The notes under the pieces: generated by a model
Databases searched by the model: none
Told to the model about the DNA's origin: nothing
What the model saw: only the letters and a program-made list of their open reading frames with translations
Shown: one piece after another, positions 31,731 through 55,064 of the stretch
Position numbering within the stretch: position 1 is the stretch's first letter
Layout of the letters: each line of letters starts with the position of its first letter
Made by a program: the position numbers and the translations under genes
Virus record (IMG/VR): IMGVR_UViG_3300023082_000011
Span: 410-64,409 of that record
Direction: 5' to 3' (one strand)
DNA: 64,000 nt
DNA from: a virus

Positions 31731-31734
31731 GGGT

Positions 31735-34162: not shown

Positions 34163-34372
34163 CGGGAGTCGGTATTAAATTCCTTGGAAATCAAATATCT
34201 GATTAGCCCCGTAAAACTCCTCTTCTCTTTTTCCATCAAAAGTTTTGACATTCGTTCCGATTCAGTATCTAATCTTATTGTTTTAATCTTCGACATGTGA
34301 TGTATTTTGTAAAGCAAATGTAATACAAACTAATTACAAAAACAAATTAACTGGTTTAGCTTTATTCCCATC

Positions 34373-35052: not shown

Positions 35053-35059
35053 GATATTA

Positions 35060-35824
35060 TTATTTGATTAGTTTAAGTCTTATGTTTTGGATGGCTACGA
35101 TTATAGCGGTCGATTCCGTTCCGCCAAATCTTTCATGGGCTTCTTTCGTGCCCATATCGGCGATGTTTTCATCTATAAGTTTTATTGCGCCTTGCTTTTC
35201 CGACTCAAGTTCGGACACCCTGTTTTTCAACCGTTGGTTTTCGGCTTTCTCTGCTTCGTAGGCTTCACGGTATTGGGCGGCGTAATGCTCTGCAATTTTA
35301 TCAAGATGTTGATAATACTCTTCGTCTTTCATTCCTTCCATTCTGGATGCGCTAAATCCAGAAAAATATTCGTCCTTAATTTCTTCCAATGACTTGAAAA
35401 CGGGAGGTTCAGTATTTTCCGTTTTTTGGGGAAAATCCTTAAAATTTATGTCAGATATTTCACTAAGATATTGCTTGGCTTTATCCAATCTTTCCTTATC
35501 CGCATGTATTGGAAGACCGCCATTTAATATTCTATTTAGAGAACGAATTAGCGAAGATATTATATTTGGACAATCACTCATATTTCGCTCAATTTCTGGC
35601 AATACCTCCGTTTCTTCTTTTGGCGGGGTGGTGGTGAAGTAATCGCTAAATTCTTCTGGTGTATAAATGAAAATTTCTGCGTGAACGGTAACGTAAATTA
35701 CACCTTTGTCAATGAGATGAATTTTGGCTTTTATACCTTTTACTATAAATAAATTATTTGTATAATGCCGGGTTCTCTCAAAATCTCTTTTCGCCCATAT
35801 GGGCATACCTGATTTTAGTTCCAT
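35060..35824 (-). CDS. hypothetical protein with a coiled-coil C-terminus (254 aa)
   Basis: ORF track. Confidence 0.4.
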   Translation of the reverse strand: MELKSGMPIWAKRDFERTRHYTNNLFIVKGIKAKIHLIDKGVIYVTVHAEIFIYTPEEFSDYFTTTPPKEETEVLPEIERNMSDCPNIISSLIRSLNRILNGGLPIHADKERLDKAKQYLSEISDINFKDFPQKTENTEPPVFKSLEEIKDEYFSGFSASRMEGMKDEEYYQHLDKIAEHYAAQYREAYEAEKAENQRLKNRVSELESEKQGAIKLIDENIADMGTKEAHERFGGTESTAIIVAIQNIRLKLIK

Positions 35825-35827
35825 GGT

Positions 35828-36151
35828 TTATTTATTGTTGAATAGTTCGTAAACCTGTTTCTTTTGTTCGTCGGTGAATTCCTGTGAATCAAACCAATTC
35901 ACAATGGCTTGCCTTTGCTTCTCCTTTTCCCACACATGCAATATTTCAGGCGTAGTAATTTCCCAAGAAGAAAATCTATTTCCAACCTCTACAAAATCCT
36001 TACCCGCCTCGTTAACCAATTTTTTACCGTTATCTAATACGGCTTGGGTTTTGGTCAACCTTACTACCGTTGAAAATCGATAATTGAAATTCTTTCCAAA
36101 TCTGGATTTATATTTCTGGCATACTTTGTCGCCTACTTTTAATTTTTCCAT
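35828..36151 (-). CDS. hypothetical protein (107 aa)
   Basis: ORF track. Confidence 0.35.
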   Translation of the reverse strand: MEKLKVGDKVCQKYKSRFGKNFNYRFSTVVRLTKTQAVLDNGKKLVNEAGKDFVEVGNRFSSWEITTPEILHVWEKEKQRQAIVNWFDSQEFTDEQKKQVYELFNNK

Positions 36152-36171
36152 GGGTTATGTGTTTGACGGCT

Positions 36172-36540
36172 TTAATAATTATTTTTGAATATTTCGTAAG
36201 ATTCCATTTCCTTTGGAAAGTCTTTTATGTCTGACATTTTTAGCTTTTTATCGCCTTTTTTGGTTAGTATTATTTCTTGCGTTTTTATATCTCTGACCCT
36301 CATTACAAAGCCCCCAAATGAGTAATTTTCACAACCGGCATAACCACAATCACATCCATAAAGTTGCTTTATGACGTAAACATAGTTTTCCCCCATTTTG
36401 AGCCTTTTTATGACAGGAACCCTACTATTGCTACGTAACTCGTATTTTTGGTTTTCATCAAAAAACGCTTCTTTATTTTCGTTCATTGGGTTTTCATTTA
36501 AGTGATTCAATGATTTCGTCTCACATTCATTCTTTTCCAA
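36172..36540 (-). CDS. hypothetical protein (122 aa)
   Basis: ORF track. Confidence 0.35.
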   Translation of the reverse strand: MEKNECETKSLNHLNENPMNENKEAFFDENQKYELRSNSRVPVIKRLKMGENYVYVIKQLYGCDCGYAGCENYSFGGFVMRVRDIKTQEIILTKKGDKKLKMSDIKDFPKEMESYEIFKNNY

Positions 36541-36587
36541 AGGTATTTACATTAATTCAACTTTCCAAACAGTAATCTATTATTTAA

Positions 36588-36815
36588 CTACTTTTCACAT
36601 TTTACGGTGTCACCTATACTAAACCTATACCAATCAAAGTCGGTAAAATATCGTTTTTCCGTAATTTTACCTTTTTCCCTGAATTTAAGCCATTTATCTG
36701 ATTTTTGTTTTCCTTTGTCCACTATCTGTAAGTCTTGATAATTACATAGGTCTTGGGGGTGATAAGAACAAGAATTTAAGATTATTGCTATAAATAATAC
36801 TATCAGTTTTTTCAT
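36588..36815 (-). CDS. small lipoprotein (spanin-like candidate)
   Basis: MKKLIVLFIAIILNSC signal peptide with a lipobox Cys; directly downstream of the glucosaminidase. Confidence 0.45.
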   Translation of the reverse strand: MKKLIVLFIAIILNSCSYHPQDLCNYQDLQIVDKGKQKSDKWLKFREKGKITEKRYFTDFDWYRFSIGDTVKCEK

Positions 36816-37399
36816 TTTAAGTTATTTTTGTGTACCACATTTTTAAGACGTGATATGTAAACGCTGTCCTCCATACTCGCGTAATGTTTCCCTATGTAGC
36901 TGTAATACAAAGCTTCCGTCTTTATTTTGTGGAGGTAACAGCTTTCATAAATCGCGCGATCAGCTAAAGCCTGTTGCCACGAAATGTATTTTGCATAACT
37001 TCCTTCGTAACTCTGGTCTGCCGTAGTCAGCCTTGATTTTGCCTTACGCATGCCGAACATGTTGTTGTTACGAAGAAAAATTTCACTCTTGAAATCATTG
37101 CTTTCCAATATGGCCTGTGCGTAGACTATGTGTGGATATCTCCAGGAGTAGCCATAAAATTCTTTTTCAAACCCTTCCTTGGAAAATTCTTTGATTTCTT
37201 GTGTAGCTTTTGGGTTTTCAGTGGGTATTGTATTCACAGTCTCTGCTTGGTAATAGTGTATGGTGAATACAACCATAAGCCCATATAGGAAACCTGAATA
37301 TAGACTCCACAAAAGACCGTACCAAGGCTTTTCTCCCCCATCGTTCTTAATGAATGTATAAATTCCTATAAAAGGGATCCAATCTAGTAATTTTTTCAT
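36812..37399 (-). CDS. GH73-family peptidoglycan N-acetylglucosaminidase (FlgJ/Lyz2-like; endolysin candidate) with an N-terminal TM anchor
   Basis: AQAILESNDFKSEIFLRNNNMFGMRKA matches the glucosaminidase AxxESgwG...nNlFGik motif; TM helix near residues 25-48. Confidence 0.55.
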   Translation of the reverse strand: MKKLLDWIPFIGIYTFIKNDGGEKPWYGLLWSLYSGFLYGLMVVFTIHYYQAETVNTIPTENPKATQEIKEFSKEGFEKEFYGYSWRYPHIVYAQAILESNDFKSEIFLRNNNMFGMRKAKSRLTTADQSYEGSYAKYISWQQALADRAIYESCYLHKIKTEALYYSYIGKHYASMEDSVYISRLKNVVHKNNLK

Positions 37400-37913
37400 A
37401 ATCTACAGTGCGCTTAGCCAAATTCTTTGTGAATCTTTTTCCGTTATCTTTCAAGCTGGGTATTGTTCAGTTCAACTGTTTCCGGTTCACCATCCGCATA
37501 CATGTACCACTTGGGCGTAACCGCGTCCGTGTTCACGGAATTGAATTCTTTCTTGAATTGAAGGGCATCTACAGTCGTCAAACAAACCATCCAATCGTCG
37601 ATTTTGCTACCCCAACCGACTTCACTTTCTATTACTGCTATTTTGTATGCTGTTATCTTCTCCATAGTTTGTTAAATAATCGTGATAAATAATCGCCCCT
37701 AAATGACTATTCATAATATTTTCGCCCGTTTCAAAACAAACTGCAAAAGGAGAAAGGTAATTTGAATTCGGTCTTTCACAAAAAACCTTTCTTTTATATG
37801 TTTTGGTTGGACTAAATAGATATGTTTTTTCAAAAGTCACTTCATATAGTAATCCGACTTCTGAATTTGATATGAAACTTAATTCTTTTACTCGCTCCAT
37901 GTTAATTTAAGTG

Positions 37914-38744
37914 TTAGTCCTTATTTTCGTTGATGTAGTCAACCACATCTTTTAACTTCCCCATAGAAACGATGGTTGTCGATATGTTTACTGATTCGAT
38001 GGACACGTCTTCCCTTAATAGTGTGTAAAGCCTTTTTATGTAACTCTTATTCATCTCTGTGCAACCATATTTTATTGACTTACCCAAATCTTTACCTTTT
38101 TTGCCACCTATTTCTGGTAATGTCTTGTTTTGTGCAATTCTTACTTCTTCAGGTGTGGCGAACCGGAGATGTTTTACATTACATGAATCATGTGTGTCCA
38201 AATTTCCGTTTACGTCTAATTTATAACAATCGGTCCAATTAGAACTTTTACCTATTACTTTACCAGTGACTGGATTTACGCCTTCCCATCTTACCCAATC
38301 ACCTTCCTTAAACTCAGATTCATACACGGCTTTCCAATTCTCCACTATTTCCGTGGGTACACCTGAAGTTGTATGGTTTTTCGAATACATGACAAATTTA
38401 TCTTGGCTGTACTCAGAAAATATCTCCCCCGCCTTTATTCTTCCCTTGAACAAATCATGGGGAGCTCTGTATCCCATTACTTTTTTATCTTCTTTTAGTA
38501 CCCATCTCTTGAATTGGTTAAAAGTGATTTCAGTGTAGCCATTCTCTATACTTCTGGACGATGTCCCATGACCTCCCCAATTGGTACTAAAACTTGGGAA
38601 ATGATAATAGTTTTCTTTATTTGTATAAGGAGGCATTACGCCGTTTTTGGTAGCATACTCTAGAACTTGTGTGTGGGTGCCTTTAATGCACCAATTTTCA
38701 GGTAATTTGTCCATTTCTTTTGTTATTAGTTTAAATTCATCCAA
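37914..38744 (-). CDS. hypothetical protein (276 aa)
   Basis: ORF track. Confidence 0.4.
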   Translation of the reverse strand: MDEFKLITKEMDKLPENWCIKGTHTQVLEYATKNGVMPPYTNKENYYHFPSFSTNWGGHGTSSRSIENGYTEITFNQFKRWVLKEDKKVMGYRAPHDLFKGRIKAGEIFSEYSQDKFVMYSKNHTTSGVPTEIVENWKAVYESEFKEGDWVRWEGVNPVTGKVIGKSSNWTDCYKLDVNGNLDTHDSCNVKHLRFATPEEVRIAQNKTLPEIGGKKGKDLGKSIKYGCTEMNKSYIKRLYTLLREDVSIESVNISTTIVSMGKLKDVVDYINENKD

Positions 38745-38783
38745 TGTTATTTCTCTTCTTAAAATAGCCCCTTGATTGTGGTG

Positions 38784-39865
38784 TCAACCCACCGACCCGT
38801 CCTCGAACATGTAAAGTGAATCACATTCTTCGTTACGACTTCTCAAAATATCAGAATTACTGTAGTTGGCTACGTTTTTTCTGTAGTGGTTTAAACGACC
38901 ACGGTTATTGTCTGTAATCCTTATTTTCCAAGTTTCATCCCTCTTAACTTCCTGTCTAAGCATTCCGGAAGGCATATTCCATAAACTTCCCATTAATCTA
39001 CCAATTTATATTTGTTTTCGAATTCTTCCATTAAAGCCAAATCCTTCTGAGGAGCCATTTTCCTGAATCTCTCCGCTGCATAACCCGGTTCACAATTGCC
39101 TTGCAAAACAGGATTCCACATTGAAGGATTTCTGAGCCCTTCCAACAGTACACTCGGTATGCCGTCATACAACCGTGTACCCCTCACTACATAGTCCTTA
39201 TCCTTCTGTATCCAGTAATCAAAGTGTTTGAATACTTCAAGGGGCGGCATGTCGTCGTTGACACACGTAATTTTATCGCCAATTTTAAAACTCATAATTC
39301 TAAATTTTTAATTTTATCCCAATTTTGTACTACAAATGGTCTCACTTTTGGGTGGAGGAATCTCAGATACTTTATATCTGGTGGTACAAATAGTTCTTCC
39401 GTGGTAGGGCTTTTCTCCCATCTTTCAATATCTGCCAAAGAGGCTGGGGTTATGTTTTCCTCAACCATTTTCCTCAACTGCTTATAGCCTGTACTTTGGC
39501 TCTCATAGGGTAGTCTTGGCTCATACATCCTATCCAAAATTTTTTCACAAAAATTGTTAAACGTTTCCTTTTTCATGGTCACTAAAGTGTTTATCTATTT
39601 TTTGTATATTTATCCTCGCCTCCATCTGTCCAAAACCTTCATTGGTATACGGGTAAGCGGCTAAAATACTTTGTTCACTGTCTATGAGTACGTAATCCTC
39701 TATTTCTTCATTTCTGACTATGAAACACATGAACCCTTTTAAAGGCGGAAGATTCTTGGCTTGTTGATTTTTTAGGTAATCGTTGAAGTATTCATCTGCA
39801 TACCATTTATGGGTGCCGCTATTGAAATGTTCCTTGGTTGTTTCAAAATCTATAACTTTTCTCAT
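38784..39865 (-). CDS. run of four small genes (69, 100, 96, 102 aa)
   Basis: ORFs 38784..38993, 38993..39295, 39292..39582 and 39557..39865; overlapping starts and stops. Confidence 0.35.
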
Positions 39866-39995
39866 TATATTTTTATTTCTGCTACAAATCTACGGAAAGT
39901 ATTTTGACCAAGAACTTATCTTAACATTATTTAACATAAAAAAGAAACCCCCGAAGAACTTAATCTTGGGGGGTTCTCTAATTCTTAATAGACCT

Positions 39996-41537
39996 TTATT
40001 TAATAGGGCATACACCACTGGCACATTCGTCCAGACCGGAGATATCATTTTCAGAAATATTAACTGAAGTGATAGGTTTCACGTTTTTAACTAATCCCTC
40101 GTATACTTCCTTGGTGATTGCCTCAAAGGGAGCCTGTATAAATCCGTGCCCAGAGTAAAGCAAGAAGCTTAGGGTCTTGAAGTTTTCGTTGAAGTTGTCC
40201 TCAATATATCTTCTTAATTGTGGTAATTCCTCTTTCTTGTAGTAGGCTGTGACACTTACGGAATTATCCGACCAAGTTTTCTGCATCTGTTTAACTTTGT
40301 CGAGTTGTTCAAACACGGTCAAGTCATCCGCCCCTATGGTGCCGTCAGGGTATTTACAAGGAAATTCTACCACCATGGTAGATCTGTCGGCAGTCCCGTC
40401 AAAGTTAATCTGTGATTCAACCTTGTAGCCGTTTGTCCTACATACTTCAATCAAAGGCGAACCGGCCTGTATCCTTATACGTCTGATAAAGTATTGTCCC
40501 GCAGTGGCCGGATGGACACCAGACGTACAACCCGCCAACAAGGATAAACTACCGCTAGGTTTAATTGTGGTTAATTTGATACTTGGATTAAATCCCATTA
40601 ATTTTGAATACTCTTTATCGTACTCACGTAAGTATTTGTAGCAATCATCCAACCAACTCAGTTGCTCTTCAGTAGCCATCATGACTCCAGTTATGCCTAT
40701 ACCCATACGCATATTCTTGTGGACAATCGACTCTGTTTCCTTGCTGTGGCAAGGTAGGGCCAGTGAATGTTTTACCACTCTATACAACATTATGACTACC
40801 TTATAGAGTTCCTCTTTGGAAACGATGTTTGGCAAGTACGTCTCGGCCAAAGCACAAGTCTCGTGGTTTGCCAAAGATTGTTCAGCACAAGGGTTGTATC
40901 CTTCTATATCTGGGTCGGGGTACTCTGTTTCTCCCGATCTACCTATTTTTTTAGATAGTTGTATGTTCACTAGTCCATAAGGCTCACCTTGTTCGTAAGT
41001 ATCCCAAAATTCCTGTGGCAACAGTTTAGCGTCAGGTACATCCACAGAATTGTTAGACATTGCCCTCCAATTGGGGATAGAGCCTAAATCCCAACGTTTT
41101 GCCTTAAGATATTCCAAATCGTCATAATCCCCTATAGCTATTTGTGCAGACCGTCTAACGTTACCTGCAACCACTATCATCCCTATGATGTTCATGATAT
41201 CAAGACAGTCAATGGGACGAAGTTGTTGCCCTCTTCTGTTATCCAAGACTGCACAGATAAGCTTAATACCTTCCACTAAAATCTCGGGGCCAGAGGCTAC
41301 CCCTCCAAAACCTTTTATGGGTGCACCTTCGCCCCTTATTAGCTGTGTAGAGTAAGTAAAACTTTCTCCTGAGTAGAAGTAGGATTTCAACACCTTTCCT
41401 AAGAGTTTCACCCAACCCTCTCTTGTGTCTGGCACAATAAAGTCTGCCTGTGCATTGTCCACACGTTCAACCTTTATCTTTCTTTTTTGGAGCTTTGGTA
41501 GCTTGTACACATGCTCCTTCTTGATTGAAAAGCCAAC
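39996..41537 (-). CDS. ribonucleotide reductase, exon 2 (catalytic core and C-terminal CxxxxC tail)
   Basis: NPCAEQSL..ETCALAETYL (active-site NPCGE..E.C.L), GFGGVASGP, C-terminal ECASGVCP; frame upstream of the GTG reads ..KVGFSIKKEH, placing the splice acceptor near 41537. Confidence 0.65.
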   Translation of the reverse strand, partial: VGFSIKKEHVYKLPKLQKRKIKVERVDNAQADFIVPDTREGWVKLLGKVLKSYFYSGESFTYSTQLIRGEGAPIKGFGGVASGPEILVEGIKLICAVLDNRRGQQLRPIDCLDIMNIIGMIVVAGNVRRSAQIAIGDYDDLEYLKAKRWDLGSIPNWRAMSNNSVDVPDAKLLPQEFWDTYEQGEPYGLVNIQLSKKIGRSGETEYPDPDIEGYNPCAEQSLANHETCALAETYLPNIVSKEELYKVVIMLYRVVKHSLALPCHSKETESIVHKNMRMGIGITGVMMATEEQLSWLDDCYKYLREYDKEYSKLMGFNPSIKLTTIKPSGSLSLLAGCTSGVHPATAGQYFIRRIRIQAGSPLIEVCRTNGYKVESQINFDGTADRSTMVVEFPCKYPDGTIGADDLTVFEQLDKVKQMQKTWSDNSVSVTAYYKKEELPQLRRYIEDNFNENFKTLSFLLYSGHGFIQAPFEAITKEVYEGLVKNVKPITSVNISENDISGLDECASGVCPIK

Positions 41538-42585
41538 CTTTTCTGTTATCTCATAGGCTCTTTATCCTATGATTCTGCACCTTCATTTGTTATACGTGCA
41601 GTTCAGACTATATCATCAGTATTTCTACTGCTGGACGCTCGTGTCAGCATTACTGTCCCAGTAGGACTCGGCTGTTAGTCGTTGAACCTTCAAAAGTGTT
41701 ACCACTTAAGCTTGGCTGCTGATAGTCCCCTTTAGTAGGATTTTCCAGCAATTCATCCAGTTTTACTCGGGCATTGGACAGAATGTACTTATTTTTAAAT
41801 ATCTTACTTGAATTAATATAATGATAGATGACCGTAGTAGTTTCAAAAATCTTTTTAGCTTGATCCACAGATTCAATTTCTGTGATTTCTTTTGTTTCAA
41901 TGTTAAGACAATACAACGTTTTATAGTTTTTTGGTATAGGAACTTTTCTTTGTTCCCACTTACCAGGGGGTTTAGCCCCTTTGTGTCTTATTTGAAACTG
42001 CCTTAATCTTTTTGAGTTCCTTCTCATACTATTTTGAATGTGCTTATCAGATATACCGATAAATTTAGCACATTCTGTATGACTTGGAAAACTCCTTAAA
42101 AAGTTACCTTCTAAGTCATACACATCTACAGATTTTCTTCCAGATAATAATTTCCCTTCTTCGTGAAGTTTCTTGACGGACTTAGAAATTTTTTCTCTCT
42201 GCTCGTCAGAAAATACCCTTAAAAGGCCCCCGATACCTTTATCGTGGGTGTTTGTCAAATCAAACCCTTTATCAAGATAATCTTTGATTATCTGTTGTTC
42301 TGCTTTATAACTCTCTTCCCAACCTTCTACTTCCGATATCATCTCAATTATAGGTGATAATCCCTTTTTTGCCAAACTTAGTATCCAACAATCCTTATGT
42401 GTTTTAGGATTACTACTTTTAGCTTTGGATTTGTGCCCTGATAATCTTACTTTTAAGGAATTTTTTGTTCTTCCTATATAGCGAATTAGATTTGTGGTTG
42501 GATCAGTGAGACTGTAGATCTTGACTTTCATTATATTGATTTGTCGTAAAGATATAAAATCTTATAATACAAACCAAATTTATTT
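41538..42585 (-). mobile_element. group I intron (~1.05 kb) with an internal GIY-YIG HEG, interrupting the RNR gene after the GSG codons
   Basis: Exon 1 ends ..LMLGSG with a T (U) as its last nucleotide (stop TAA two codons later), and exon 2 starts VGFS.., together rebuilding the conserved GGGVGFS motif; an S-element-like UGAUAUAGUCUG lies ~60 nt before an intronic ..AAAAG 3' end; HEG ORF 41650..42531. Confidence 0.5.
41650..42531 (-). CDS. GIY-YIG homing endonuclease (intron-encoded)
   Basis: KIYSLTDPTTNLIRYIGRTKNSLKVRLSGH; C-terminal DNA-binding-like region; sits between the two RNR exons. Confidence 0.75.
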   Translation of the reverse strand: MKVKIYSLTDPTTNLIRYIGRTKNSLKVRLSGHKSKAKSSNPKTHKDCWILSLAKKGLSPIIEMISEVEGWEESYKAEQQIIKDYLDKGFDLTNTHDKGIGGLLRVFSDEQREKISKSVKKLHEEGKLLSGRKSVDVYDLEGNFLRSFPSHTECAKFIGISDKHIQNSMRRNSKRLRQFQIRHKGAKPPGKWEQRKVPIPKNYKTLYCLNIETKEITEIESVDQAKKIFETTTVIYHYINSSKIFKNKYILSNARVKLDELLENPTKGDYQQPSLSGNTFEGSTTNSRVLLGQ

Positions 42586-42936
42586 ACCCGACCCTAACAT
42601 AAGCATATCCATGGTCCATGTAAAAGGCCTGATCGGCTCATTTACAACTACAAAAGCACAGTTTTGGAGTGATGCCAATCCTAATTTCTCTACCGTATCA
42701 GTGCCTAGTTGCCACATGAAACGCCCCGCTACGGAACCTTTCATGTTATGTCGCATGTCCCGATAAAATTCTTTTTCGTCATCCGTGAGAACAAGTTTAA
42801 GCTGTTTGTCTATACCTCTTAGTTCTCTCTCTACCGTTTCGGAAAATTCTTCCGTATTACCGTCCTTCTTAGTTCGGGCGTAAGTTCTTTTATAGGTTAT
42901 GTAACCCAATTCTCCCCACTTTACATCTCTCTGCAT
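42586..42936 (-). CDS. ribonucleotide reductase, exon 1 (N-terminal ~117 aa)
   Basis: YKRTYAR..EEFSETVERELRGI ... NCAFVVVNEPI ... LMLGSG matches the RNR N-terminal region through to the start of the GGGxG motif; ORF track 42580..42936. Confidence 0.6.
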
Positions 42937-43155
42937 TAAATCATTCCTCCCAATACCTTATCATATCCCACATCCTTGTTACCCTTAGCCACAATTCTGG
43001 CGTACATTTCCAGCCACTCATAAGTTGTCCCTGAAGATATGTGACCTATCTTAGGCAATGTTTTTAATCTTTCGTTCATCAAAATTAAAATTTAAAAAGA
43101 CGACGAAAATAGTACTTTCCGCCGTCTTTTACAAATATCTTATGGGATATCCTAT

Positions 43156-43479
43156 CTAATCAGCCAATAGATTTCCTTCATCTCCTGCCGCAGCGTTAAA
43201 CAGGATGGTATCCACGTCAACTTTCAGTATCTGGAACATATAAAAGAGTTCCTCGGCCTGATAGACCTGACTTCCGAGTATCACGGACATATCCCCAAGC
43301 ATCTTGATGTCCTTTGCCTTCAGCGTCATGGTAGTCTCAGCCTGGACACCTTCTTCCGAAAATTTTTGCATAAAAGAATTTATCTGGTCTTTTCTACTTT
43401 CGTACAGACTGTCCAAGCCCTGTTTCTTCTTTTGGAGGATACCCTGTAGGGCCGCCGCTCTTTCTTCTTTGTTTTTCAT
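43156..43479 (-). CDS. hypothetical protein (107 aa)
   Basis: ORF track. Confidence 0.35.
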   Translation of the reverse strand: MKNKEERAAALQGILQKKKQGLDSLYESRKDQINSFMQKFSEEGVQAETTMTLKAKDIKMLGDMSVILGSQVYQAEELFYMFQILKVDVDTILFNAAAGDEGNLLAD

Positions 43480-43506
43480 TTTTTTTGTTTTAAGTTAGGC
43501 ATTAAC

Positions 43507-44037
43507 TTACCTGTTTGTACCAACGTTTAGTGCTAGTGTAATCGGTAATTTTATACTTGTATGCAAAGGTTCCTTGGATAGGAAATCCACTTCGTATTCT
43601 TTCAATTCTATCTCTTTTGCGAAACTTCCTTTCCTAAGGTACGTTACATTAAAATCTCCGGCAGTTTTGATTTCCATCGTGGCTGATTTTAAAATCATGG
43701 TATACTTCGTTGTTCCGTTCAGGTGCAATGCCATCAACCTGTCAAATGTGGGTTGAAATGAATCCGTCACGGGATATGGCTGTTCACTGTACAAAATCTG
43801 TATGACCCTGTCTTGTTCCAGTGCGGCCGTGAATTTCCTCAAAACCTCGTTGACGTCCCAAATCGTATCCCCTTTCACACATAGCGGCAACAACAACTCA
43901 TTGGGACCTATAGTCATGTGTATCTTTACAAAATAATAGCTGTTGTCCATACCAAGGTTAATTTTAAACCAAGATAGGATTTTCTTCCAGATTTTGATGA
44001 TTTTTTTCATGTGTATTCCGTTTTTCCCGGGCCACAC
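43507..44037 (-). CDS. hypothetical protein (176 aa)
   Basis: ORF track. Confidence 0.4.
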   Translation of the reverse strand: MWPGKNGIHMKKIIKIWKKILSWFKINLGMDNSYYFVKIHMTIGPNELLLPLCVKGDTIWDVNEVLRKFTAALEQDRVIQILYSEQPYPVTDSFQPTFDRLMALHLNGTTKYTMILKSATMEIKTAGDFNVTYLRKGSFAKEIELKEYEVDFLSKEPLHTSIKLPITLALNVGTNR

Positions 44038-44271
44038 GAAAAAGGCTTTTGGTAGCCCGGCTATAATTTTTGATTAATTAAACCGAGCTTTAGGCAGCTA
44101 TGTTACTTCTTCTCTTTTTTAGGCTTCGCCACGGCAGCCAATTTCTTGTCGAAATCCTCCGTTTTTTTATCACCGTACTTCTTGATAAGTTCCTCGTCGG
44201 TGAGTCCTTTTTTCTTTTCTGGCATGAGCTTGTTTTTAGTTATGCAAATTTAGGATTTTCTTTGTTATATT

Positions 44272-44532
44272 TTAGCTAGGTTTCGGATCATAGCCGGGGA
44301 GTATGAATTTTGCTTCAAACTCTTCGTATGAACCATATATCCTGATACTTTTAACTACGTCCTCCACCTTGATTACGTGTGTAATTTCCATTACGTTTTC
44401 TTCCTTGTCGGCAGTAACGTATAAATAATCTTTCTTTTCGTCGGTCTGTTTGCTTAGTTTAAGGCCTGAAATTTCATCCGAGTGTACAAAACCCCGTTGT
44501 TCAAATTCTTCTATAAAAACTGATGTTATCAT
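44272..44532 (-). CDS. hypothetical protein (86 aa)
   Basis: ORF track. Confidence 0.35.
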   Translation of the reverse strand: MITSVFIEEFEQRGFVHSDEISGLKLSKQTDEKKDYLYVTADKEENVMEITHVIKVEDVVKSIRIYGSYEEFEAKFILPGYDPKPS

Positions 44533-44595
44533 TGTTAAGATATTAATTCAGACCTTCTAACGATAGGTGCCCTCCATTGTTACAGTTTACAGAAA

Positions 44596-44841
44596 TTATT
44601 TCACAACTAACAAATCCTCCACCGTGACATCCAAAGCCACGGCTATCCTGTAAAGGTTCTTTATGGTGGGGTTTATGCGTCCCGACTCAAGACGCCTTAT
44701 TGCGGAATCCTCGGTACCCAGCATGCTTGCCAACGTGGCCTGCGTCATTCCCTTTTCCTTTCGTACGGCCTTGATGTTTAGGCCTATGTTTTTTACGTAT
44801 TCGTCCTCGTTCATAGGGATGAATGTATCCCGTGTTCGCAT
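44596..44841 (-). CDS. XRE-family helix-turn-helix transcriptional regulator (Cro/CI-like)
   Basis: GMTQATLASMLGTEDSAIRRLESGRINPTIKNLYRIAVALDVTVEDLL is the canonical HTH_3 signature. Confidence 0.7.
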   Translation of the reverse strand: MRTRDTFIPMNEDEYVKNIGLNIKAVRKEKGMTQATLASMLGTEDSAIRRLESGRINPTIKNLYRIAVALDVTVEDLLVVK

Positions 44842-44907
44842 TTTATATCAGGACGGATGTGTTCTGTTTTGAAATTCTTTCTACATTTGGCTAAATTAAT
44901 TAACGCC

Positions 44908-45327
44908 ATGAAAAAACTCTTTTTCCTTACCGTCTCCATACTTGCCCTAGCATTTTCGGGCTGCGACAAGGAGTCCGTCGAATCGAAATACATCGTCGCC
45001 GTGACGGCGGAAAACTATTCCGACGAACTTATGATAATGTACCAATCCAACCTTACCTACCAAAAATACGATCCCGACAAAAACATGCCGTTCCTTGACC
45101 TGTCGAACGGTGAAGCCGTCATAGAGGCGTACAAAAAGGATGAGGTAAAATTTCATTTCAAGGCTTATCCGACCGCCCCTCCCCAGCAGGTACAGGGCTA
45201 CACCATACACATGGACATTTTCGTGAGAAAATCCAACGGAACCAGGGGCAACAAGGTGGCGGGTTTTGACCTTTCCTGCGGCGTGACGAGTACGGAAGGC
45301 ACCATCGTCGTCAACGTGGAATCTTAA
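44908..45327 (+). CDS. lipoprotein
   Basis: MKKLFFLTVSILALAFSGC signal peptide plus lipobox; plus strand, divergent from the HTH gene. Confidence 0.5.
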   Translation: MKKLFFLTVSILALAFSGCDKESVESKYIVAVTAENYSDELMIMYQSNLTYQKYDPDKNMPFLDLSNGEAVIEAYKKDEVKFHFKAYPTAPPQQVQGYTIHMDIFVRKSNGTRGNKVAGFDLSCGVTSTEGTIVVNVES

Positions 45328-45329
45328 TT

Positions 45330-45878
45330 ATGAAATCATCACTTATCATCATCTTCGTTTTGCTTAGTGGTAGTTTGTATTCGCAAAGTAACTACTACTT
45401 AGGATATGAGGAAGGATACCGCAACGGCTGCTCATGTAACGCATATCCTCCGAATTCAAACCATGTATACAAAAACGGGAGTTATGACCAAGGCTTCCTT
45501 GACGGAAAATTGGAGGGGCGTTTGAGAAAACTTGAAGGTACTTCCCAACCACAGCAAAGACCCGCCCTAACATACCCTAACAATTCATACAGGTCTACAC
45601 AGGCGGATTTACTATATCAATCGTTAGCTTACAAACAACAACTTTATGACAAGCGTGTGGTGAAGTTGCAGGAGCTTGTGGATGATTTTTGGTACGTATA
45701 CGCGCTCAAAACTAAAAAGTATGGCAACAATGTGCCCAAGGAACTATCGGATTACGCAAACGAAGTTATTGACGTATTGGCAAAACAGACAAATGTGGAC
45801 CTATCGAATGAAAGTATATGGTCGGGCATATATAACTACTATCTAAAGCACAGAAACAACGTAGCCGCGTGGCAATAA
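45330..45878 (+). CDS. secreted protein with a signal peptide (182 aa)
   Basis: MKSSLIIIFVLLSGSLYSQ. Confidence 0.45.
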   Translation: MKSSLIIIFVLLSGSLYSQSNYYLGYEEGYRNGCSCNAYPPNSNHVYKNGSYDQGFLDGKLEGRLRKLEGTSQPQQRPALTYPNNSYRSTQADLLYQSLAYKQQLYDKRVVKLQELVDDFWYVYALKTKKYGNNVPKELSDYANEVIDVLAKQTNVDLSNESIWSGIYNYYLKHRNNVAAWQ

Positions 45879-45884
45879 TTTACT

Positions 45885-46271
45885 ATGTTTAACAATCAAA
45901 TGGATGCAATGGAAAGAAGAAATACGGTGTACGGCACAGACATTACAACAATTTATGATTACGATACATTAAATTCCTTAAAAGATAGGCTCAATAAAGA
46001 GTTTTCTGTCCCAAATGCGTTTTTCTGTCTATCCACCGTGAATGAATTGGATTATGATAGAATTTCTGTTGCCGTAACCCAAAACATGATGCCGTCAGGC
46101 ATAGATCAATTAAAGTCTGGGTACATACAACAAAGGATAGTATCTAACTTTAAAACCCAGGAGTTGCAGATAGTTTTTGTTAAATTCACTCAAGAGCCAT
46201 TTGGACTAGAAATTATGAGACTTGTAAGCTTAGTGAATGTTTTACCATATCGGGAGCTCATACCTTCATGA
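45885..46271 (+). CDS. hypothetical protein (128 aa)
   Basis: ORF track; plus-strand operon with the two preceding genes. Confidence 0.4.
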   Translation: MFNNQMDAMERRNTVYGTDITTIYDYDTLNSLKDRLNKEFSVPNAFFCLSTVNELDYDRISVAVTQNMMPSGIDQLKSGYIQQRIVSNFKTQELQIVFVKFTQEPFGLEIMRLVSLVNVLPYRELIPS

Positions 46272-46439
46272 TTTCTGACTAATACAAAGAAAACGACCCG
46301 TCTTCCTTTAGTGATTTTACAATATACAAAATCATATATCGACAAAATCATCAACAAGATGTGAATTAAAATTACTTTACTCTTTTTCATAAACCCTTCA
46401 ACTTTCCCCGGGCAAACGAAAAGAGGACAGTCTGCTTGA

Positions 46440-47520
46440 CAAATGCCCGGAGTAAATTAGTTAGTTAATCCAGACAACTGTCGTCCATTATTTTTGAATC
46501 AAATCTGCATATTTCAAGTTCTCCCTACCCATCCTAAGTAACGTGAGGTTGAACTTCTGTGTAGGTTTTTCTTCGCGTTCGTTATATCGGAATGCCATCT
46601 CGTCGCAATACTTCTGTAAGTGTTTCCTGCTTACCTGATAGTACGTTCCTATGATGCTTCTTTTTAGGTGGCTCCAATGGTTTTCAACTGGATTACTTGT
46701 ATATCCGTCGTCAGTCACGTAATTCTTGGCTCCGTGGTTCACGACTTTTTGGTTGTAGTACCTGTCCAATCCCGCATAACCCGTCCACTCGTCGGTGACT
46801 ATGGTAGACCCCTGCGGTACGAGTTCCCATACCAAAGGCTGTAATGTCATTGATTTGGTGTCGGGAACCACCTTAGTGTACACCTTTCCGTCCTGCATCA
46901 TACCGAATACCGGAGTCTTGTCTTTGTAACTGCGGCCTTGCGATTGCTTTACTTTCTTGTCCGCGTGACGGTTCTTGTTTTTTCCTCCCACAAATGTCTC
47001 GTCCATGGTTATCACCATATCCTGTTGTATGTCGGGAACATCCTGCTTATAGGAATGTCTTATCCGGCTAAGCATGAACCAGGCCGTCTTTTGGGTCAAA
47101 CCCAGATCCTCGGCAAGCTGATAGGAACTTATCCCGCGTTTATGGGACGAAAACAGGTAGACCGCAATGAACCAATGGCGAAGGCCGATGGGCGAGTTCT
47201 CGAATATCGTCCCAACCCGAACCGTGTACCTCTTTCTGCAAGTTCCGCATTTGTAGAGGCCGTTAAACTCTCCCTTTACGTTGAGTTTGTATGCTTTCTG
47301 TCCTTCGCAGTGCGGACATTTGGGTTTGCCTTCCCACAGCACATCTTCCAGGTATTCCCTGCACGATTTCTCGTCGGGCAGCACCCTCAACATTTCCGCA
47401 AACGACTTGAATTCCAATTTACACATAACCAGAACTTTAAAGTGTATAAATTTACTGAATCGGGGTGAAACGGGCAAATATGTTGTTCAAATTCCTATGA
47501 AAATTTTGTTAATTTTAGAA
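46440..47520 (-). mobile_element. IS1595-family insertion sequence (ends approximate)
   Basis: Contains the single transposase gene 46488..47477; terminal inverted repeats not confidently resolved by eye. Confidence 0.4.
46488..47477 (-). CDS. IS1595-family DDE transposase
   Basis: N-terminal zinc ribbon CPHCEG..CGTCRKRY, HTH, MVITMDETFVGG, TIVTDEWTGY, VVNHG, NPVENHWSHLKR and AFRYNER follow the IS1595/ISXO2 transposase motif order. Confidence 0.8.
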   Translation of the reverse strand: MPVSPRFSKFIHFKVLVMCKLEFKSFAEMLRVLPDEKSCREYLEDVLWEGKPKCPHCEGQKAYKLNVKGEFNGLYKCGTCRKRYTVRVGTIFENSPIGLRHWFIAVYLFSSHKRGISSYQLAEDLGLTQKTAWFMLSRIRHSYKQDVPDIQQDMVITMDETFVGGKNKNRHADKKVKQSQGRSYKDKTPVFGMMQDGKVYTKVVPDTKSMTLQPLVWELVPQGSTIVTDEWTGYAGLDRYYNQKVVNHGAKNYVTDDGYTSNPVENHWSHLKRSIIGTYYQVSRKHLQKYCDEMAFRYNEREEKPTQKFNLTLLRMGRENLKYADLIQK

Positions 47521-47521
47521 C

Positions 47522-48380: not shown

Positions 48381-49100
48381 TCATTGTTTGAATATTTTTA
48401 GATATGTAGTGTATAAGTCTGAAATCTCTTCCACGGCCTGATTAACTTTTTTAAGTGCAAAATCTACCCGTTCCTTGTTGTAGTCCAGAGGTATGACAAA
48501 TTGTTCTTTTGAAATTTTAAGCGGCGGCCTTACATGGCTTCCTTCGCGACGTATAAAGTAAACGTCTATACCTTCAATGATTTCTCCCAGCAATTCCTCT
48601 GCATAAGCATAAAGAATTAATTGGATATATTCTTTATCAGAGTACTTTGACTCTTTTAATTTTCCACCTGTTTTCTGATCCCGGCACCAGACACCCTTTT
48701 CACCCTTAGTCCAAACGTCAATGAAGCCTATTATGAAGTATTCTTCACATTCTATGACCACCATTTTTTCATATAAGGCCCCTTCTGGCCTCAACACTTT
48801 CAAATTCATGTTTTGCTGCCCTTCGAAGCCGTAAGGATTCTCTTGGGAAAAGAAGCCGTTCTCCAAAGCTTCCCCGCACCAAGTACCAAATTCTCCATAT
48901 ATGCCTTGTGGCAATTCAATTTTGGCGAACTTCTGCTTAATAAAATCGGCCCTGTAGTTAAACCAAGAGTCTATCGAAGAGTACGATATGTAAGGCTGCC
49001 CCAACAAATGTTTCAACCTGTGCTGGTTTTCCGGTCTGTCCTTATAGAACCATGTATCTTTCGTGAGTACGCTTGGTAAGTTTATTTTTCCTTTTCCCAT
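48381..49100 (-). CDS. PD-(D/E)xK nuclease of the Cas4/RecB family
   Basis: IIGFIDVWTKGEKGVWCRDQKTGG matches the hhGxhD...DxKTG signature. Confidence 0.45.
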   Translation of the reverse strand: MGKGKINLPSVLTKDTWFYKDRPENQHRLKHLLGQPYISYSSIDSWFNYRADFIKQKFAKIELPQGIYGEFGTWCGEALENGFFSQENPYGFEGQQNMNLKVLRPEGALYEKMVVIECEEYFIIGFIDVWTKGEKGVWCRDQKTGGKLKESKYSDKEYIQLILYAYAEELLGEIIEGIDVYFIRREGSHVRPPLKISKEQFVIPLDYNKERVDFALKKVNQAVEEISDLYTTYLKIFKQ

Positions 49101-50080
49101 TATTTATTCAACCCTTCAATTACCGCTTTGACATCTTCCTCTTTCTGTTGTATGGTAGCCTTCGTATCCTGATCCTGGTTCTCAAAATCTTCCCTTACCA
49201 AAACTCCACGTAAGATGGTGAACAGATTTTCCTTGTCCTTCTTTGTAAGTTTTTTCTTGGAAGTTAATTTCAAGATTTCGTCCTTGTTCTCTTCGCTGAT
49301 TCCTCGGTCTTCGTAGATTTTTTGTAGGAGTGACTTTTCTGGGTGAACTTGTTCTACTGTACTACTGTCAGTTTTATTAACTATTACTACATCAAAATTC
49401 TCCCAACGCATTTTGTAAAATAGTTGTACTAAAGCAATTATATCCTTTACAACGTACTCATTTATGAGTTTAATTCCGTTAGTCCAATATTCTTCGCTTA
49501 CCTTACTTCCTTCAATTTCACCATCCTTTGGAGATACTACGTTATAAAGGTAGCAAACTTCATCAAAGGACGGGTTATTGTAAAAAGTACCTCGTGTGTG
49601 CTGCATTAAATCAATAACCTTTTTCATGTCCCACTCCTTTTTCCCGGAGGGGTTGAAGTCATCTTTTAATTTGGCGGCTATATCAAAATGTCTCGCTGAA
49701 CAGCTTACTATGGTGGGCAGATCAAAATTGATTCCATTAAAAGTTACAAGGTATTCGAATTGTCTGGATATATCGCAGAACTGTTTGATTATCTCTGCTT
49801 CTTCGCCATAAATGGATTTTACACGTAACTCCCCTTTGACAACATATCCGACACCTATGCATACAATCTTGTTGTAACACATACGTAAGGCAGCCTCTTT
49901 TTGGTAAAGATCTAAGATTTCTGCGTTAGGGGGAAACTCTCCCGTTGTTTTGTTCCTGTTCTTTTTCGCAAACAGTTGAAACTCTTTTGAATCTAAGTCT
50001 AAATCTTTACTTCTTCTAACACACTCTATGTCAACGAACAGACATTCCGTTATCTTTATTGCTTTTAATTTATTGTTCAT
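49100..50080 (-). CDS. DEDD-family 3'-5' exonuclease (RNase H-like fold)
   Basis: Exo I FVDIECV (DxE), Exo II FNGINFDLP, Exo III-like YNNPSFDEVCYLYN. Confidence 0.5.
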   Translation of the reverse strand: MNNKLKAIKITECLFVDIECVRRSKDLDLDSKEFQLFAKKNRNKTTGEFPPNAEILDLYQKEAALRMCYNKIVCIGVGYVVKGELRVKSIYGEEAEIIKQFCDISRQFEYLVTFNGINFDLPTIVSCSARHFDIAAKLKDDFNPSGKKEWDMKKVIDLMQHTRGTFYNNPSFDEVCYLYNVVSPKDGEIEGSKVSEEYWTNGIKLINEYVVKDIIALVQLFYKMRWENFDVVIVNKTDSSTVEQVHPEKSLLQKIYEDRGISEENKDEILKLTSKKKLTKKDKENLFTILRGVLVREDFENQDQDTKATIQQKEEDVKAVIEGLNK

Positions 50081-53127: not shown

Positions 53128-53472
53128 TTAATTTATTTTCATTTCCAATGCCTGCTCTTTGGTGGGAACCCAATCCCCGCCTAAATAACCCATGACCCAA
53201 TCGTAGAGATTATCGTAGGGTACTTCGGGACCACTGTTGGATCTGAAATTTATGTTATTTCCCATGCCCCTGAAAGATATGCTCCACACGTCCCCAAACC
53301 TTGTATCATAGCAGTTGTCTATATACTTAATCATGAAGCCATATTCTGGCAGGTTCGGGTATTTTTGTTTTGTTTCTTCACTCCTACCGTCAGATGATAT
53401 ATACCCAAATCTGTGATGTTGTTGGATGAAACTTAGCACTTTATTGTATTGGTCTGGTGACATTCCTTTCAT
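53128..53472 (-). CDS. hypothetical protein (114 aa), downstream of the DGR RT
   Basis: ORF track; overlaps the RT 3' end. Confidence 0.35.
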   Translation of the reverse strand: MKGMSPDQYNKVLSFIQQHHRFGYISSDGRSEETKQKYPNLPEYGFMIKYIDNCYDTRFGDVWSISFRGMGNNINFRSNSGPEVPYDNLYDWVMGYLGGDWVPTKEQALEMKIN

Positions 53473-54394
53473 ATTTATTCCTTAAATTTACCGAATTACA
53501 ATGCGCCAACCAAGAATTGTGGTTCATCTTAATTGGGTTCTTTTTGTACTTTTGTTTTATAGACTTCCTTAGTAATACGTGGGTGTGATAATGTCGAAAT
53601 CCTACCCAGTCTATACCCCTACTTTCTACGGGAAATATTTGGTGGTTTGATTTAACCTCCAGTTTTAGGTTGTCCCCCAAATACTTCTTGATTTCTTGAA
53701 ACCGCGTATGAAGTTCTTCCTTACTGTCTGACAAAATTACAAAATCGTCACAATATCTTTGAAAATACTTTATCCGCAAAACTTCCTTAACCCAGTGGTC
53801 GAAATAGGTGAGGTAGAAGTTAGCCAAAAACTGACTTGTGTAAGATCCCAAAGGCAAGCCTTCTTCATAAGAGTCTATTACGTCATCCAATAACCATAAA
53901 ACCCCCCTATCCTTAAACTTTTTTCGGAGCAGCCCTTTTAATATACTCTTGTCTACGGACTGATAGAATTTTCTTATGTCCAACTTAAGGCAGTATTTCG
54001 TACCTTCTGCGTCTTTCAGGTAATTCCTCAGCTTATAAGATGCTGCATGCACACCCCTTCCTTTTATGCAACTAAAGGTATCCGCCGTGAAAGTCTTTAT
54101 AAACAAAGGCTCCAAAACATTTAGAACTACATGATGTACTATACCATCAGGGTAAAATGGGAGTGAGGATATTGTTCTTTCCTTACCCTCAAAAATGGTG
54201 AAGGTGTGGTAAGGAGAAGTAGTGAATGATCTATACTCCAACATCGCCTTTATTTTCCACAGATTTTCTTCCCTATTTTCCAGATGTCTTTTTACTCCCC
54301 TTTGTTTGGCTTTACCTCTTTTGGCCTTAATCTCCGCTTTTCTTATGTTATCTATGTCAACTATCTTTTCAAAAAGGTTGCCTATACGTTTCAT
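53441..54394 (-). CDS. diversity-generating retroelement (DGR) reverse transcriptase
   Basis: RT motifs: LKLDIRKFYQSVD (motif A), LPLGSYTSQFLANFYL (DGR-specific [IL]GxxxSQ in place of QGxxxSP), RYCDDFVIL (YxDD); 317 aa; adjacent TR/VR pair. Confidence 0.85.
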   Translation of the reverse strand: MKRIGNLFEKIVDIDNIRKAEIKAKRGKAKQRGVKRHLENREENLWKIKAMLEYRSFTTSPYHTFTIFEGKERTISSLPFYPDGIVHHVVLNVLEPLFIKTFTADTFSCIKGRGVHAASYKLRNYLKDAEGTKYCLKLDIRKFYQSVDKSILKGLLRKKFKDRGVLWLLDDVIDSYEEGLPLGSYTSQFLANFYLTYFDHWVKEVLRIKYFQRYCDDFVILSDSKEELHTRFQEIKKYLGDNLKLEVKSNHQIFPVESRGIDWVGFRHYHTHVLLRKSIKQKYKKNPIKMNHNSWLAHCNSVNLRNKYERNVTRPIQ

Positions 54395-54602: not shown

Positions 54603-55064
54603 TTAGTATGGTATGTATTCTTCAAATTGGTTAAAGGCAATCTTTGTAAGGTGCCTCTGTAATGGTTCACTCTTAGTACAGAGGCGCGCCGAAAAGTCAC
54701 AATCCGAGTAGTAGCCACCGAAGTAGTTGACAACGGGTTTACCTGATCTTAAATCCCAGTATGTAAACCATTTTCTTTCGCTCGAATTGGTAAAGTCTGG
54801 TTCCCAACCTTCATTCAAAGCTTTACATTGTACAACAATTTCTTGTTCTGCTACAATCTTACGGGATAATCCTTGTACACTATACAAAAGACGTAACTGT
54901 TTAACGGCTTCGTCATTCTCTCCCAATTCAAGTATCGCATCCTGCAATCCTCTTATACGGGAAAAGATGTCTTTTTTACTTTCTTTGAATACTATATTCT
55001 CAAATGTTGACTTTTCTTTGTCAATTTCGTAACCGTTGGGAATTTCAATTTTTAGATTTTTCAT
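54603..55064 (-). CDS. DGR target protein (153 aa) with the variable repeat near its C-terminus
   Basis: VR encodes ..KPVVNYFGGYYSDCDFSARLC..; C-type-lectin-like Gly/Tyr/Asp/Cys-rich C-terminal region. Confidence 0.7.
   Translation of the reverse strand: MKNLKIEIPNGYEIDKEKSTFENIVFKESKKDIFSRIRGLQDAILELGENDEAVKQLRLLYSVQGLSRKIVAEQEIVVQCKALNEGWEPDFTNSSERKWFTYWDLRSGKPVVNYFGGYYSDCDFSARLCTKSEPLQRHLTKIAFNQFEEYIPY
54679..54737 (-). repeat. DGR variable repeat (VR)
   Basis: Matches the TR except at 10 of 18 TR adenine positions (coding strand): classic A-specific mutagenesis pattern. Confidence 0.75.

Follow-up and report, generated by a model that had tools for sequence, protein, structure and literature searches.

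Of all phage genes, ribonucleotide reductase is reported to be the one that group I introns and inteins interrupt most often, and the cases on record include two in which nrdJ is split (PMC3653736). The literature also describes I-BthII, a GIY-YIG endonuclease whose gene lies in a group IA intron of nrdF (PMC2248736), and many group I introns are known in the crAss-like phages (PMC7886860). The present account deals with a 64,000-nucleotide (nt) stretch of viral DNA, positions 410 to 64,409 of the IMG/VR record IMGVR_UViG_3300023082_000011, which as a whole is called the window, and with a reductase gene in it that is divided by a 1,048-nt insert. A preliminary description, made from the letters alone, had proposed that the insert is a group I intron of about 1 kb that carries a homing endonuclease gene. 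The reductase introns taken for comparison were those of T4 nrdB (I-TevIII) and nrdD/sunY (I-TevII), those of bnrdE and bnrdF in the Bacillus prophage SPbeta, and those of nrdE and nrdF in the B. cereus group (I-BthII). All of the reductase and intron features described here lie on the minus strand.

The analysis led to a reading that is regarded as very probable, namely that a mobile, IA-like group I intron resides in the gene for a reductase of the ribonucleoside-triphosphate reductase (RTPR) type of an uncultured phage. This phage is distantly related to Maribacter phage Panino, and its host is therefore probably a member of the Bacteroidota. A megablast search of window positions 30000-50000 against the GenBank phages gave no match.

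The two reductase exons and their splice junction

The first of the open reading frames (ORFs) at the locus, 42936..42580, encodes 118 amino acids (aa) and ends in LMLGSGK*, and the third, 41510..39996, encodes 504 aa and contains NPCAEQSL, ETCAL, GFGGVASGP and a C-terminal CASGVC. The preliminary description had recognised a reductase N-terminus ending in LMLGSG in the former and the catalytic core, with its C-terminal cysteine pair, in the latter, and both were found as described in the translations. Extended upstream in frame, the 41510..39996 ORF reads EKVGFSIKKEH, and when 42936..42586 is joined to 41537..39996 an in-frame product of 630 aa is obtained. The 1,048 nt thus removed lie between GGT (42588-42586) and GTT (41537-41535) and have a G+C content of 34%, versus 38% for the window. 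Read on into the insert, the frame of exon 1 stops two codons in (AAA UAA).

The ribonucleotide reductase profile PHROG 367 is matched by exon 1 over its positions 25-139 and continues without a break over 140-697 in exon 2. A blastn search found that Maribacter phage Panino (PP540027.1), in which an uninterrupted 633-aa 'ribonucleotide reductase' is annotated, matches both flanks in two pieces. The spliced product is 74% identical to this protein and free of gaps at the junction, which reads MDMLMLGSG|VGFSIKKEHVYKLPK in the window and MDMLMLGSGVGYSIKREHVYKLPK in Panino (the upright bar marks a junction or site here and below), and the DNA alignment, with a difference of exactly 1,048 nt, agrees with the protein alignment. 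The reductase is also continuous in 42 of 46 IMG/VR homologues. Among the GenBank phages, 1,073 of the 1,075 matching records have one place that covers at least 80% of the query, and every GenBank phage row among the matches listed (40 of 40) is matched in a single piece. The earlier proviso that the two ORFs might be separate subunits is excluded by these homologues, in which they form one protein. The junction falls between G117 and V118, the equivalent of G162|V163 in the RTPR of Lactobacillus leichmannii, within the conserved G-G/S-G-V-G-F motif, and the supposition that an upstream KVGFS allows the exons to rebuild the conserved motif was borne out, in the form GSG|VGFS, by the in-frame join and the Panino alignment. 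The segments 42936..42586 and 41537..39996 are the exons of one reductase gene.

By its sequence relationships the host gene is assigned to the monomeric class II, RTPR-type, adenosylcobalamin-dependent reductases. Pfam matched Ribonuc_red_lgC, RNR_Alpha, PF21995 and PF17975 on the spliced product, and the best NCBIfam model was TIGR02505 (RTPR, adenosylcobalamin-dependent), at 339.1 bits against a curated cut-off of 340.05, with the dimeric NrdJ model NrdJ_Z next at 61 bits. The sole PDB relative was the L. leichmannii RTPR 1L1L (E 2.7e-84), aligned in three stretches that cover aa 6-630. Residues C93, N332, C334, E336, C345, C622 and C627 align to C119, N406, C408, E410, C419, C731 and C736 of that enzyme; the catalytic N332, C334, E336 and C345 and the C-terminal C622/C627 are all carried by exon 2. 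The preliminary description had recommended alignment to the NrdJ and NrdA families as a check on class and splice sites; the matches to RTPR place the enzyme among the monomeric class II reductases, and the Panino alignment supports the splice sites. The extra segment of about 55 aa that had been remarked on after GFS does exist, but it is not an oddity, as it is the RNR-II insertion domain (PF21995) of the monomeric class II enzymes.

Compared with Rfam, as had been suggested, the insert matched RF00028 (Intron_gpI) at minus-strand positions 41827..41587. The score of 63.8 bits exceeds the gathering score of 50 (E 7e-14; model positions 1-253), and no other Rfam match in the window reached gathering level. 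Together with the Panino alignment and a canonical P1 and P10, this match upheld the proposed intron and its splice sites, and on such grounds the insert is identified as a group I intron and its splice junction as shown. The guide GCCCGA (41772-41767) forms the 3' strand of P1 in six pairs with UCGGGU (42591-42586), with a U.G at the splice site, and directly 5' of it CCAAU (41777-41773) makes the five pairs of P10 with GUUGG of exon 2 (41537-41533). Exon 1 ends on a T, as had been pointed out; in the RNA this is U42586, the base that forms the U.G wobble in P1, and the intron ends on G41538. The CCAAU x GUUGG P10 and the terminal G also hold in three of the same-site introns described below (L103, L104, L106).

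Two other placements were tried. Moving the junction by one base would leave the protein the same, but the exon would then end on G and the intron on A, and this was rejected as non-canonical. A local P1 formed through GGUUUG near the 5' splice site consists entirely of wobble pairs and was rejected, since the guide adjacent to P3 covaries with the exon in the relatives. The positions of the exons, the intron and its parts are collected in Table 1.

Table 1. Parts of the interrupted reductase gene, with positions in the window
Feature	Positions	Strand	Basis
Exon 1, reductase aa 1-117, ends ...MDMLMLGSG	42586..42936	-	Pfam RNR_Alpha; PHROG 367
Exon 2, aa 118-630 and stop, begins VGFSIKK	39996..41537	-	Panino and RTPR alignments; PHROG 367
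RNR-II insertion domain, aa 146-214	41247..41453	-	Pfam PF21995, 41.6 bits, cut-off 27; aligns to 1L1L
Group I intron, 1,048 nt, IA-like, starts AAAUAAAUUUGG, ends ...ACAGAAAAG, omega-G 41538	41538..42585	-	RF00028; Panino gap
5' strand of P1, exon UCGGGU	42586..42591	-	Pairs with GCCCGA ~815 nt downstream; covaries in relatives
Intron leader, 54 nt, 5' splice site to endonuclease ATG	42532..42585	-	Sequence reading
Homing endonuclease gene, 293 aa, GIY-YIG and NUMOD1, stop UAA 41652-41650	41650..42531	-	Pfam; PHROG 314
Internal guide sequence CCAAU-GCCCGA	41767..41777	-	Identical in same-site orthologues L103, L104, L106
Ribozyme core	41552..41760	-	Rfam alignment; minimum free energy fold; 29-sequence covariation
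P3	41760-54/41637-31	-	
P4	41750-45/41722-17	-	
P5	41740-37/41729-26	-	
P6, with P6b	41716-14/41688-86	-	
P7	41680-76 plus 41682, pairing with 41610-05	-	
P7.1	41674-71/41648-45	-	
P7.2	41667-64/41658-55	-	
P8 (GAAA loop)	41630-26/41621-17	-	
'S element' GAUGAUAUAGUCUG, J8/7 and 3' strand of P7	41604..41617	-	Rfam alignment, covariation
P9	41601-596/41580-75	-	
P9.1	41571-66/41557-52	-	

The ribozyme core and the endonuclease gene in the P1 loop

The intron is IA-like in subgroup; it has P7.1 and P7.2 and no P2. P7.1 and P7.2, which lie between P7 and the 3' strand of P3, were 100% and 97% paired, and in each three of the four pairs covary. A structure without P2 was preferred because only the six bases GUAAAA lie between the guide and P3; P2-like hairpins in the 5' part of the Rfam alignment (41827-41790) had low posterior probability, lay inside the endonuclease ORF and were rejected. 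The loop closed by P1 is about 815 nt long and holds the 54-nt leader and the endonuclease ORF. The S-element-like sequence that had been noticed near the 3' end, UGAUAUAGUCUG at 41617-41604, stands 66 nt before that end and represents J8/7 with the 3' strand of P7. The core itself was not where it had been expected. The preliminary description had looked for it in the ORF-free flanks, 41538..41650 and 42532..42585, and had made its absence there a refutation of the intron, but the 3' end of the endonuclease ORF (41777..41650) takes in the guide, P3, P4, P5 and P6 together with the 5' strand of P7 and the greater part of P7.1 and P7.2. With an ORF that occupies the P1 loop and extends into the core, that test was mis-specified and would have wrongly rejected a true intron.

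Covariation was counted in an alignment of 29 sequences (A3) onto which the window structure was projected, with P7 written as a pseudoknot; nested brackets for P3 and P7 gave meaningless pairings. In this alignment 93.8% of the cells were paired, versus 28-42% with slid partners, both-sided changes occurred in 34 of the 56 pairs, and no observed measure was reached by any of 500 shuffles. Double changes were seen in four of the seven P3 pairs, and P5, P6b, P7.1, P7.2, P9 and P9.1 all covary. The five core pairs of P7 are invariant, and the sixth covaries, as GC in 15 and AU in 14 sequences. The window sequence has no non-standard pair among the 56 that were modelled. An unconstrained minimum free energy fold of 41779..41538 recovered P3-P6, P7.1, P7.2, P8, P9 and P9.1, the P7 pseudoknot alone not being recovered.

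The GIY-YIG endonuclease that had been placed at 41650..42531 was confirmed by Pfam matches above the cut-offs, to PF01541 (28.9 bits, cut-off 22.6) and to NUMOD1 (31.1 bits, cut-off 22.8), and the ORF also matches PHROG 314, 'homing endonuclease'. Database searches gave 97 homologues, one of them identical and located on a 139,261-bp contig; a search against the PDB sequences gave no match at E <= 1, and tblastn found no paralogues elsewhere in the window. In an alignment of 14 homologues, Y6, Y18, G20, R29, H33, E78 and N94 are invariant, and we take these residues, G20 apart, to correspond to the catalytic residues of I-TevI. The motifs of the enzyme are intact, and by analogy it would be expected to have the cleavage activity and specificity of a homing endonuclease. 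The last ~125 nt of the ORF double as the guide sequence and P3 to P7.2, and the UAA stop lies in the P7.1/P7.2 region. Among the homologues the C-terminal tails vary in length and the stops fall at different points of the core, so the tail looks like a consequence of the overlap between ORF and ribozyme rather than a conserved domain. An octamer in the leader region, TAAATTTG at 42582-42575, was considered as a Bacteroidota-type promoter for the endonuclease gene on account of its fit to TAnnTTTG, but the motif count was 52 on the coding strand versus 56 on the other, and the candidate was rejected. A scan of 39800-43300 for sigma-70 promoters and terminators gave nothing interpretable near the intron.

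A conventional course of splicing can be proposed from these features. The intron in the transcript would fold, and its guide would pair with the last six bases of exon 1 in P1 and later with the first five bases of exon 2 in P10. An exogenous guanosine bound in P7 would attack after U42586, and the freed 3'-OH of exon 1 would then attack after omega-G41538 to give GGU|GUU and restore GSG|VGFS, with an expected ligated junction of GGGUCGGGU|GUUGGCUUU. By analogy with I-TevI, I-BthII and their relatives, the endonuclease would cut intron-less alleles near the insertion site, and repair of the double-strand break would copy the intron in, the process known as homing. Because the 3' end of the ORF also serves as guide and P3-P7.2, a ribosome could reach the stop codon only by unfolding the core, and a single transcript would then probably be either translated or spliced, but not both.

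Recurrence, related introns and alternative explanations

At least four further metagenomic contigs carry this intron, with its endonuclease gene, at this site of the reductase: L103 (Logan, 110 kb), L104/L105 (from JGI and Logan), L106 (from an NCBI metagenome assembly) and L107 (JGI). In L103-L107 the closest homologues of the endonuclease (53-60% identity) lie between an RNR_Alpha fragment and a C-terminal reductase fragment, exon 1 ends at residue 117, and the junctions UCGGGU|AAAUA...G|GUUGG are shared. The guide CCAAUGCCCGA is common to the window, L103, L104 and L106 in the core alignment, and same-site orthologous introns score 71 and 66 bits on RF00028. The peptide NAR(V/L/I)K(L/Q)(D/G/E)EL, which is encoded by the guide sequence of the window, occurs in 22 of the 97 endonuclease homologues. 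All 46 of the reductase homologues from IMG/VR lack an intron at the GSG|VGF site, and an exact-pattern scan for the site-specific guide with P3 gave no match in IMG/VR and one in the JGI metagenome collection, counts that are too low by the nature of exact matching. The reductase of the window is closer to intron-less alleles (67-70% nt identity) than to intron-bearing ones (56-63%), and the distribution of the intron is therefore patchy, which fits horizontal spread or repeated loss.

Other insertions were encountered among the reductase homologues. L093 has a group I intron (4322-5240; RF00028, 91 bits) at TTV|KPSG with a 3'-located GIY-YIG ORF, and L096 (4002-4225) and L099 (3972-4270) have ORF-less inserts of ~220-300 nt at NP|CAEQ with the motif UAUAGUCC or UACAGUCC; RF00028 gave 32 bits on L099, below the gathering score, and did not detect L096. 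An in-frame intein occupies QN|C, at the catalytic cysteine, in L097 (approximately 3280-4190). This reductase family is therefore an insertion hot spot, with at least four occupied sites.

The ribozyme has a much wider kinship. From P3 to near the 3' end, the core is 74-80% identical in nucleotide sequence to the dUTPase introns of crAssphage and crAss-like phages, which carry an annotated 'intron-encoded HNH endonuclease'. A conserved 17-mer was found at 51 IMG/VR loci, which were aligned with a hidden Markov model of the core. In these relatives the guide adjacent to P3 complements the end of the upstream exon 39-956 nt away and changes with the exon: GACUGU x GCAGUC, GACUCU x GGAGUC and GACUAU x GUAGUC in dUTPase genes, CAGGAU x GUCCUG in a uracil-DNA glycosylase gene, and ACGCGU x GCGCGU, GGGGAU x GUCCCC and others in further exon contexts. 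In the window (41650-41780) and across the loci L002-L056 and P0001-P0097, the P1-loop ORF runs into the ribozyme in one and the same frame, whether it encodes an HNH_3, a LAGLIDADG_2 or a GIY-YIG protein, and the tail that the ribozyme then encodes is recurrent, (G/D)ELLExP..NQQPSL..EGSxTNSRV..DSNADTSALP..DDIV. QQPS is found near the C-terminus in 63 of the 97 GIY-YIG homologues, and the other two frames through the ribozyme meet stops within 4-8 codons. In relatives that have no ORF (L012, L013, L049), the P1 loop is ~40 nt long.

The contig L104, besides its reductase intron at the same site, holds a second family member at about 668-1790. This one splits the uracil-DNA glycosylase gene mentioned above at GQD|PYH, and its P1 loop is occupied by a LAGLIDADG_2 ORF (725-1687). 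Staphylococcus epidermidis phages (Staphylococcus phage 6ec, L005 2004-2103, and ~27 related records) have, between two amidase/endolysin gene fragments, a segment 77% identical to the P3-P6 part of the core, which suggests a related, unannotated intron in the lysin gene of these phages.

A broader picture is put forward as a tentative one, possible but short of probable. One ribozyme chassis, widespread in the phages of Bacteroidota including the crAss-like phages, might be retargeted among genes (dUTPase, uracil-DNA glycosylase, RTPR-type reductase and other exon contexts) by a change of its 11-nt guide, and might have its cargo swapped among GIY-YIG, HNH and LAGLIDADG genes, always in the P1 loop and in the same frame relative to the ribozyme tail; the overlap would then act as an inbuilt switch by which a transcript either yields endonuclease or is spliced. 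A literature search of limited reach found no description of one scaffold with three endonuclease types in the same P1-loop position and frame.

Phage reductases that are split without an intron are documented, the precedents being nrdA-a and nrdA-b, separated by mobE in Aeromonas phage Aeh1, and nrdJ-a and nrdJ-b of the Thermus phage phiYS40 (PMC3653736). Were the window gene of this kind, the endonuclease gene would be free-standing, no splicing would take place and the two polypeptides would assemble after translation; gene callers do break the locus into three ORFs, in the window as in the orthologous contigs, and an in-frame GTG at 41510 could serve as the start of the second reductase ORF. 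That start, however, would drop VGFSIKKEH, which is conserved in the homologues, the junction lies inside an invariant G(S/C/G)GVG(F/Y) motif, the two exon ends with which the guide pairs fall precisely on the protein junction, and the group I core is complete, above the Rfam gathering score and backed by covariation, so a true split is regarded as very unlikely indeed. Reductase genes are also known hot spots for inteins (PMC3653736), and the homologous reductase L097 has one, but an intein or other in-frame protein-level element is barely conceivable for an insert in which the exon-1 frame ends at a UAA after two codons, the ORF has its own ATG, Pfam matched only GIY-YIG and NUMOD1 and no Hint domain, and an RNA ribozyme core is present.

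It might also be supposed that the intron is a decayed relic that splices poorly or not at all, with a reductase pseudogene around it and an inactive endonuclease. Once fixed, homing endonuclease genes frequently degenerate, relatives with absent or truncated ORFs exist (the three ORF-less loci above and the 223-aa forms P0019 and P0022-24), and the z-score of the fold is modest. Every core helix is nevertheless intact in the window, the U.G, the omega-G, P10 and the invariant P7 and J8/7 bases are all present, both exons are open with all of their catalytic residues, and the endonuclease is full length and keeps its invariant catalytic residues; a relic is accordingly judged very unlikely. 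Some observations do weigh against a mobile, IA-like intron in an RTPR-type reductase gene, as preferred here. TIGR01453, 'group I intron endonuclease', matched residues 114-172 only, with 38.4 bits against a cut-off of 56.05, and the enzyme is accordingly classed with the GIY-YIG/NUMOD1 endonucleases rather than in TIGR01453; the TIGR02505 score of the reductase is 0.95 bits below its curated cut-off. The minimum free energy was only modestly better than that of shuffles (z -1.78), and MAFFT misaligns the variable P8 hairpin, which alone accounts for the poor score of P8 in the 29-sequence alignment, so P8 is backed mainly by each sequence's own complementarity. No co-conversion tract was found in the flanking exons, identity near the junction being no higher among the intron-bearing alleles than against intron-less ones, and there is therefore no evidence of recent homing. 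Self-splicing, homing and the coupling of translation to splicing are, moreover, predictions from sequence.

The rest of the window and comparison with described introns

Outside the interrupted gene, a strong terminator-like hairpin (15 pairs and then a T-rich run) is present at 43095-43130 on the minus strand, immediately upstream of 43082..42936, a small ORF in front of the reductase start. The reductase transcription unit may begin downstream of this hairpin. An ORF for an IS1595-family transposase (46488-47477; DDE_Tnp_IS1595, E 7e-42, and a zinc ribbon) lies within the apparent phage replication module. The ORF 50070-51014, with a T5orf172 domain (related to GIY-YIG/Bro-N), adjoins a PolB-exonuclease-like ORF, 49100..50080, and may be a free-standing endonuclease-like gene. 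A reverse-transcriptase ORF at 53441..54394 on the minus strand (Pfam RVT_1, E 3e-16) is adjoined by a 59-nt imperfect repeat, 54526-54584 and 54679-54737, the copies being 81% identical. The differences fall almost all at minus-strand A positions of the copy nearer the reverse transcriptase, and the second copy is at the 3' end of the ORF 54603..55064. The region 53441-55064 thus resembles a diversity-generating retroelement, of which the two copies would be the template and variable repeats. At 55719-55803 on the minus strand ARAGORN reported an odd tRNA-like gene; its anticodon has four bases (caca), and it is assigned no amino acid.

For annotation, the intron has direct consequences. In the window, as in at least four further metagenomic contigs, gene callers turn the reductase into two 'genes' and a hypothetical protein, and recognition of the intron restores a complete and apparently functional B12-dependent reductase, which bears on surveys that use viral reductases as ecological markers. 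This gene extends the reductase sites colonised by mobile introns to a monomeric class II (RTPR-type) enzyme and its GSG|VGF motif, and an environmental, probably marine, intron from a Bacteroidota phage is linked to the dUTPase introns of crAss-like phages. The intron family is a convenient natural series for following the invasion and swapping of endonuclease genes between introns and the ways in which translation is reconciled with splicing.

The L. leichmannii RTPR (1L1L) and the window enzyme share full-length homology, the same catalytic Cys, Asn and Glu residues, the C-terminal Cys pair and the insertion domain, but the window enzyme is ~110 residues shorter (630 vs 739 aa), encoded by a phage and interrupted by an intron. 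With I-TevI and the TIGR01453 family, whose members combine a GIY-YIG catalytic domain with a linker and DNA-binding modules, the intron-encoded enzyme has in common an N-terminal GIY-YIG domain, a NUMOD1-type DNA-binding region and a place in an intron of a phage nucleotide-metabolism gene. It differs in that its ~40 C-terminal residues are dictated by the ribozyme sequence and, as noted, in its sub-threshold TIGR01453 score. In T4, the ORFs of td and nrdB are looped out of P6 and that of sunY out of P9, whereas the ORF in the window occupies the P1 loop and shares sequence with the guide and P3-P7.2. Like the IA introns of other bacterial and phage reductases, the intron in the window has an IA-type ribozyme with P7.1/P7.2, interrupts a conserved motif of the catalytic region, encodes an endonuclease and is patchily distributed (PMC3653736, PMC2248736); its host gene, however, is of class II RTPR type and not of class Ia, Ib or III, its site is GSG|VGF, and P2 is absent.

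A further likeness is to the dUTPase intron of crAssphage (Carjivirus communis) and crAss-like phages (BK010471 KP06_gp34/gp35; cr50_1; cr1_1), which has the same scaffold, a guide just before P3 and a P1-loop ORF in the same frame with the tail (G/D)ELLExP..QQPS..EGSxTNSRV, but differs in its host gene, its guide and its HNH_3 in place of GIY-YIG/NUMOD1. What the window adds is a new class of host gene and a new site for a known mechanism, and the current understanding of group I introns is unchanged. The less ordinary aspect is at the level of the family, in which one scaffold is found with HNH, LAGLIDADG or GIY-YIG in the same P1-loop position and frame.

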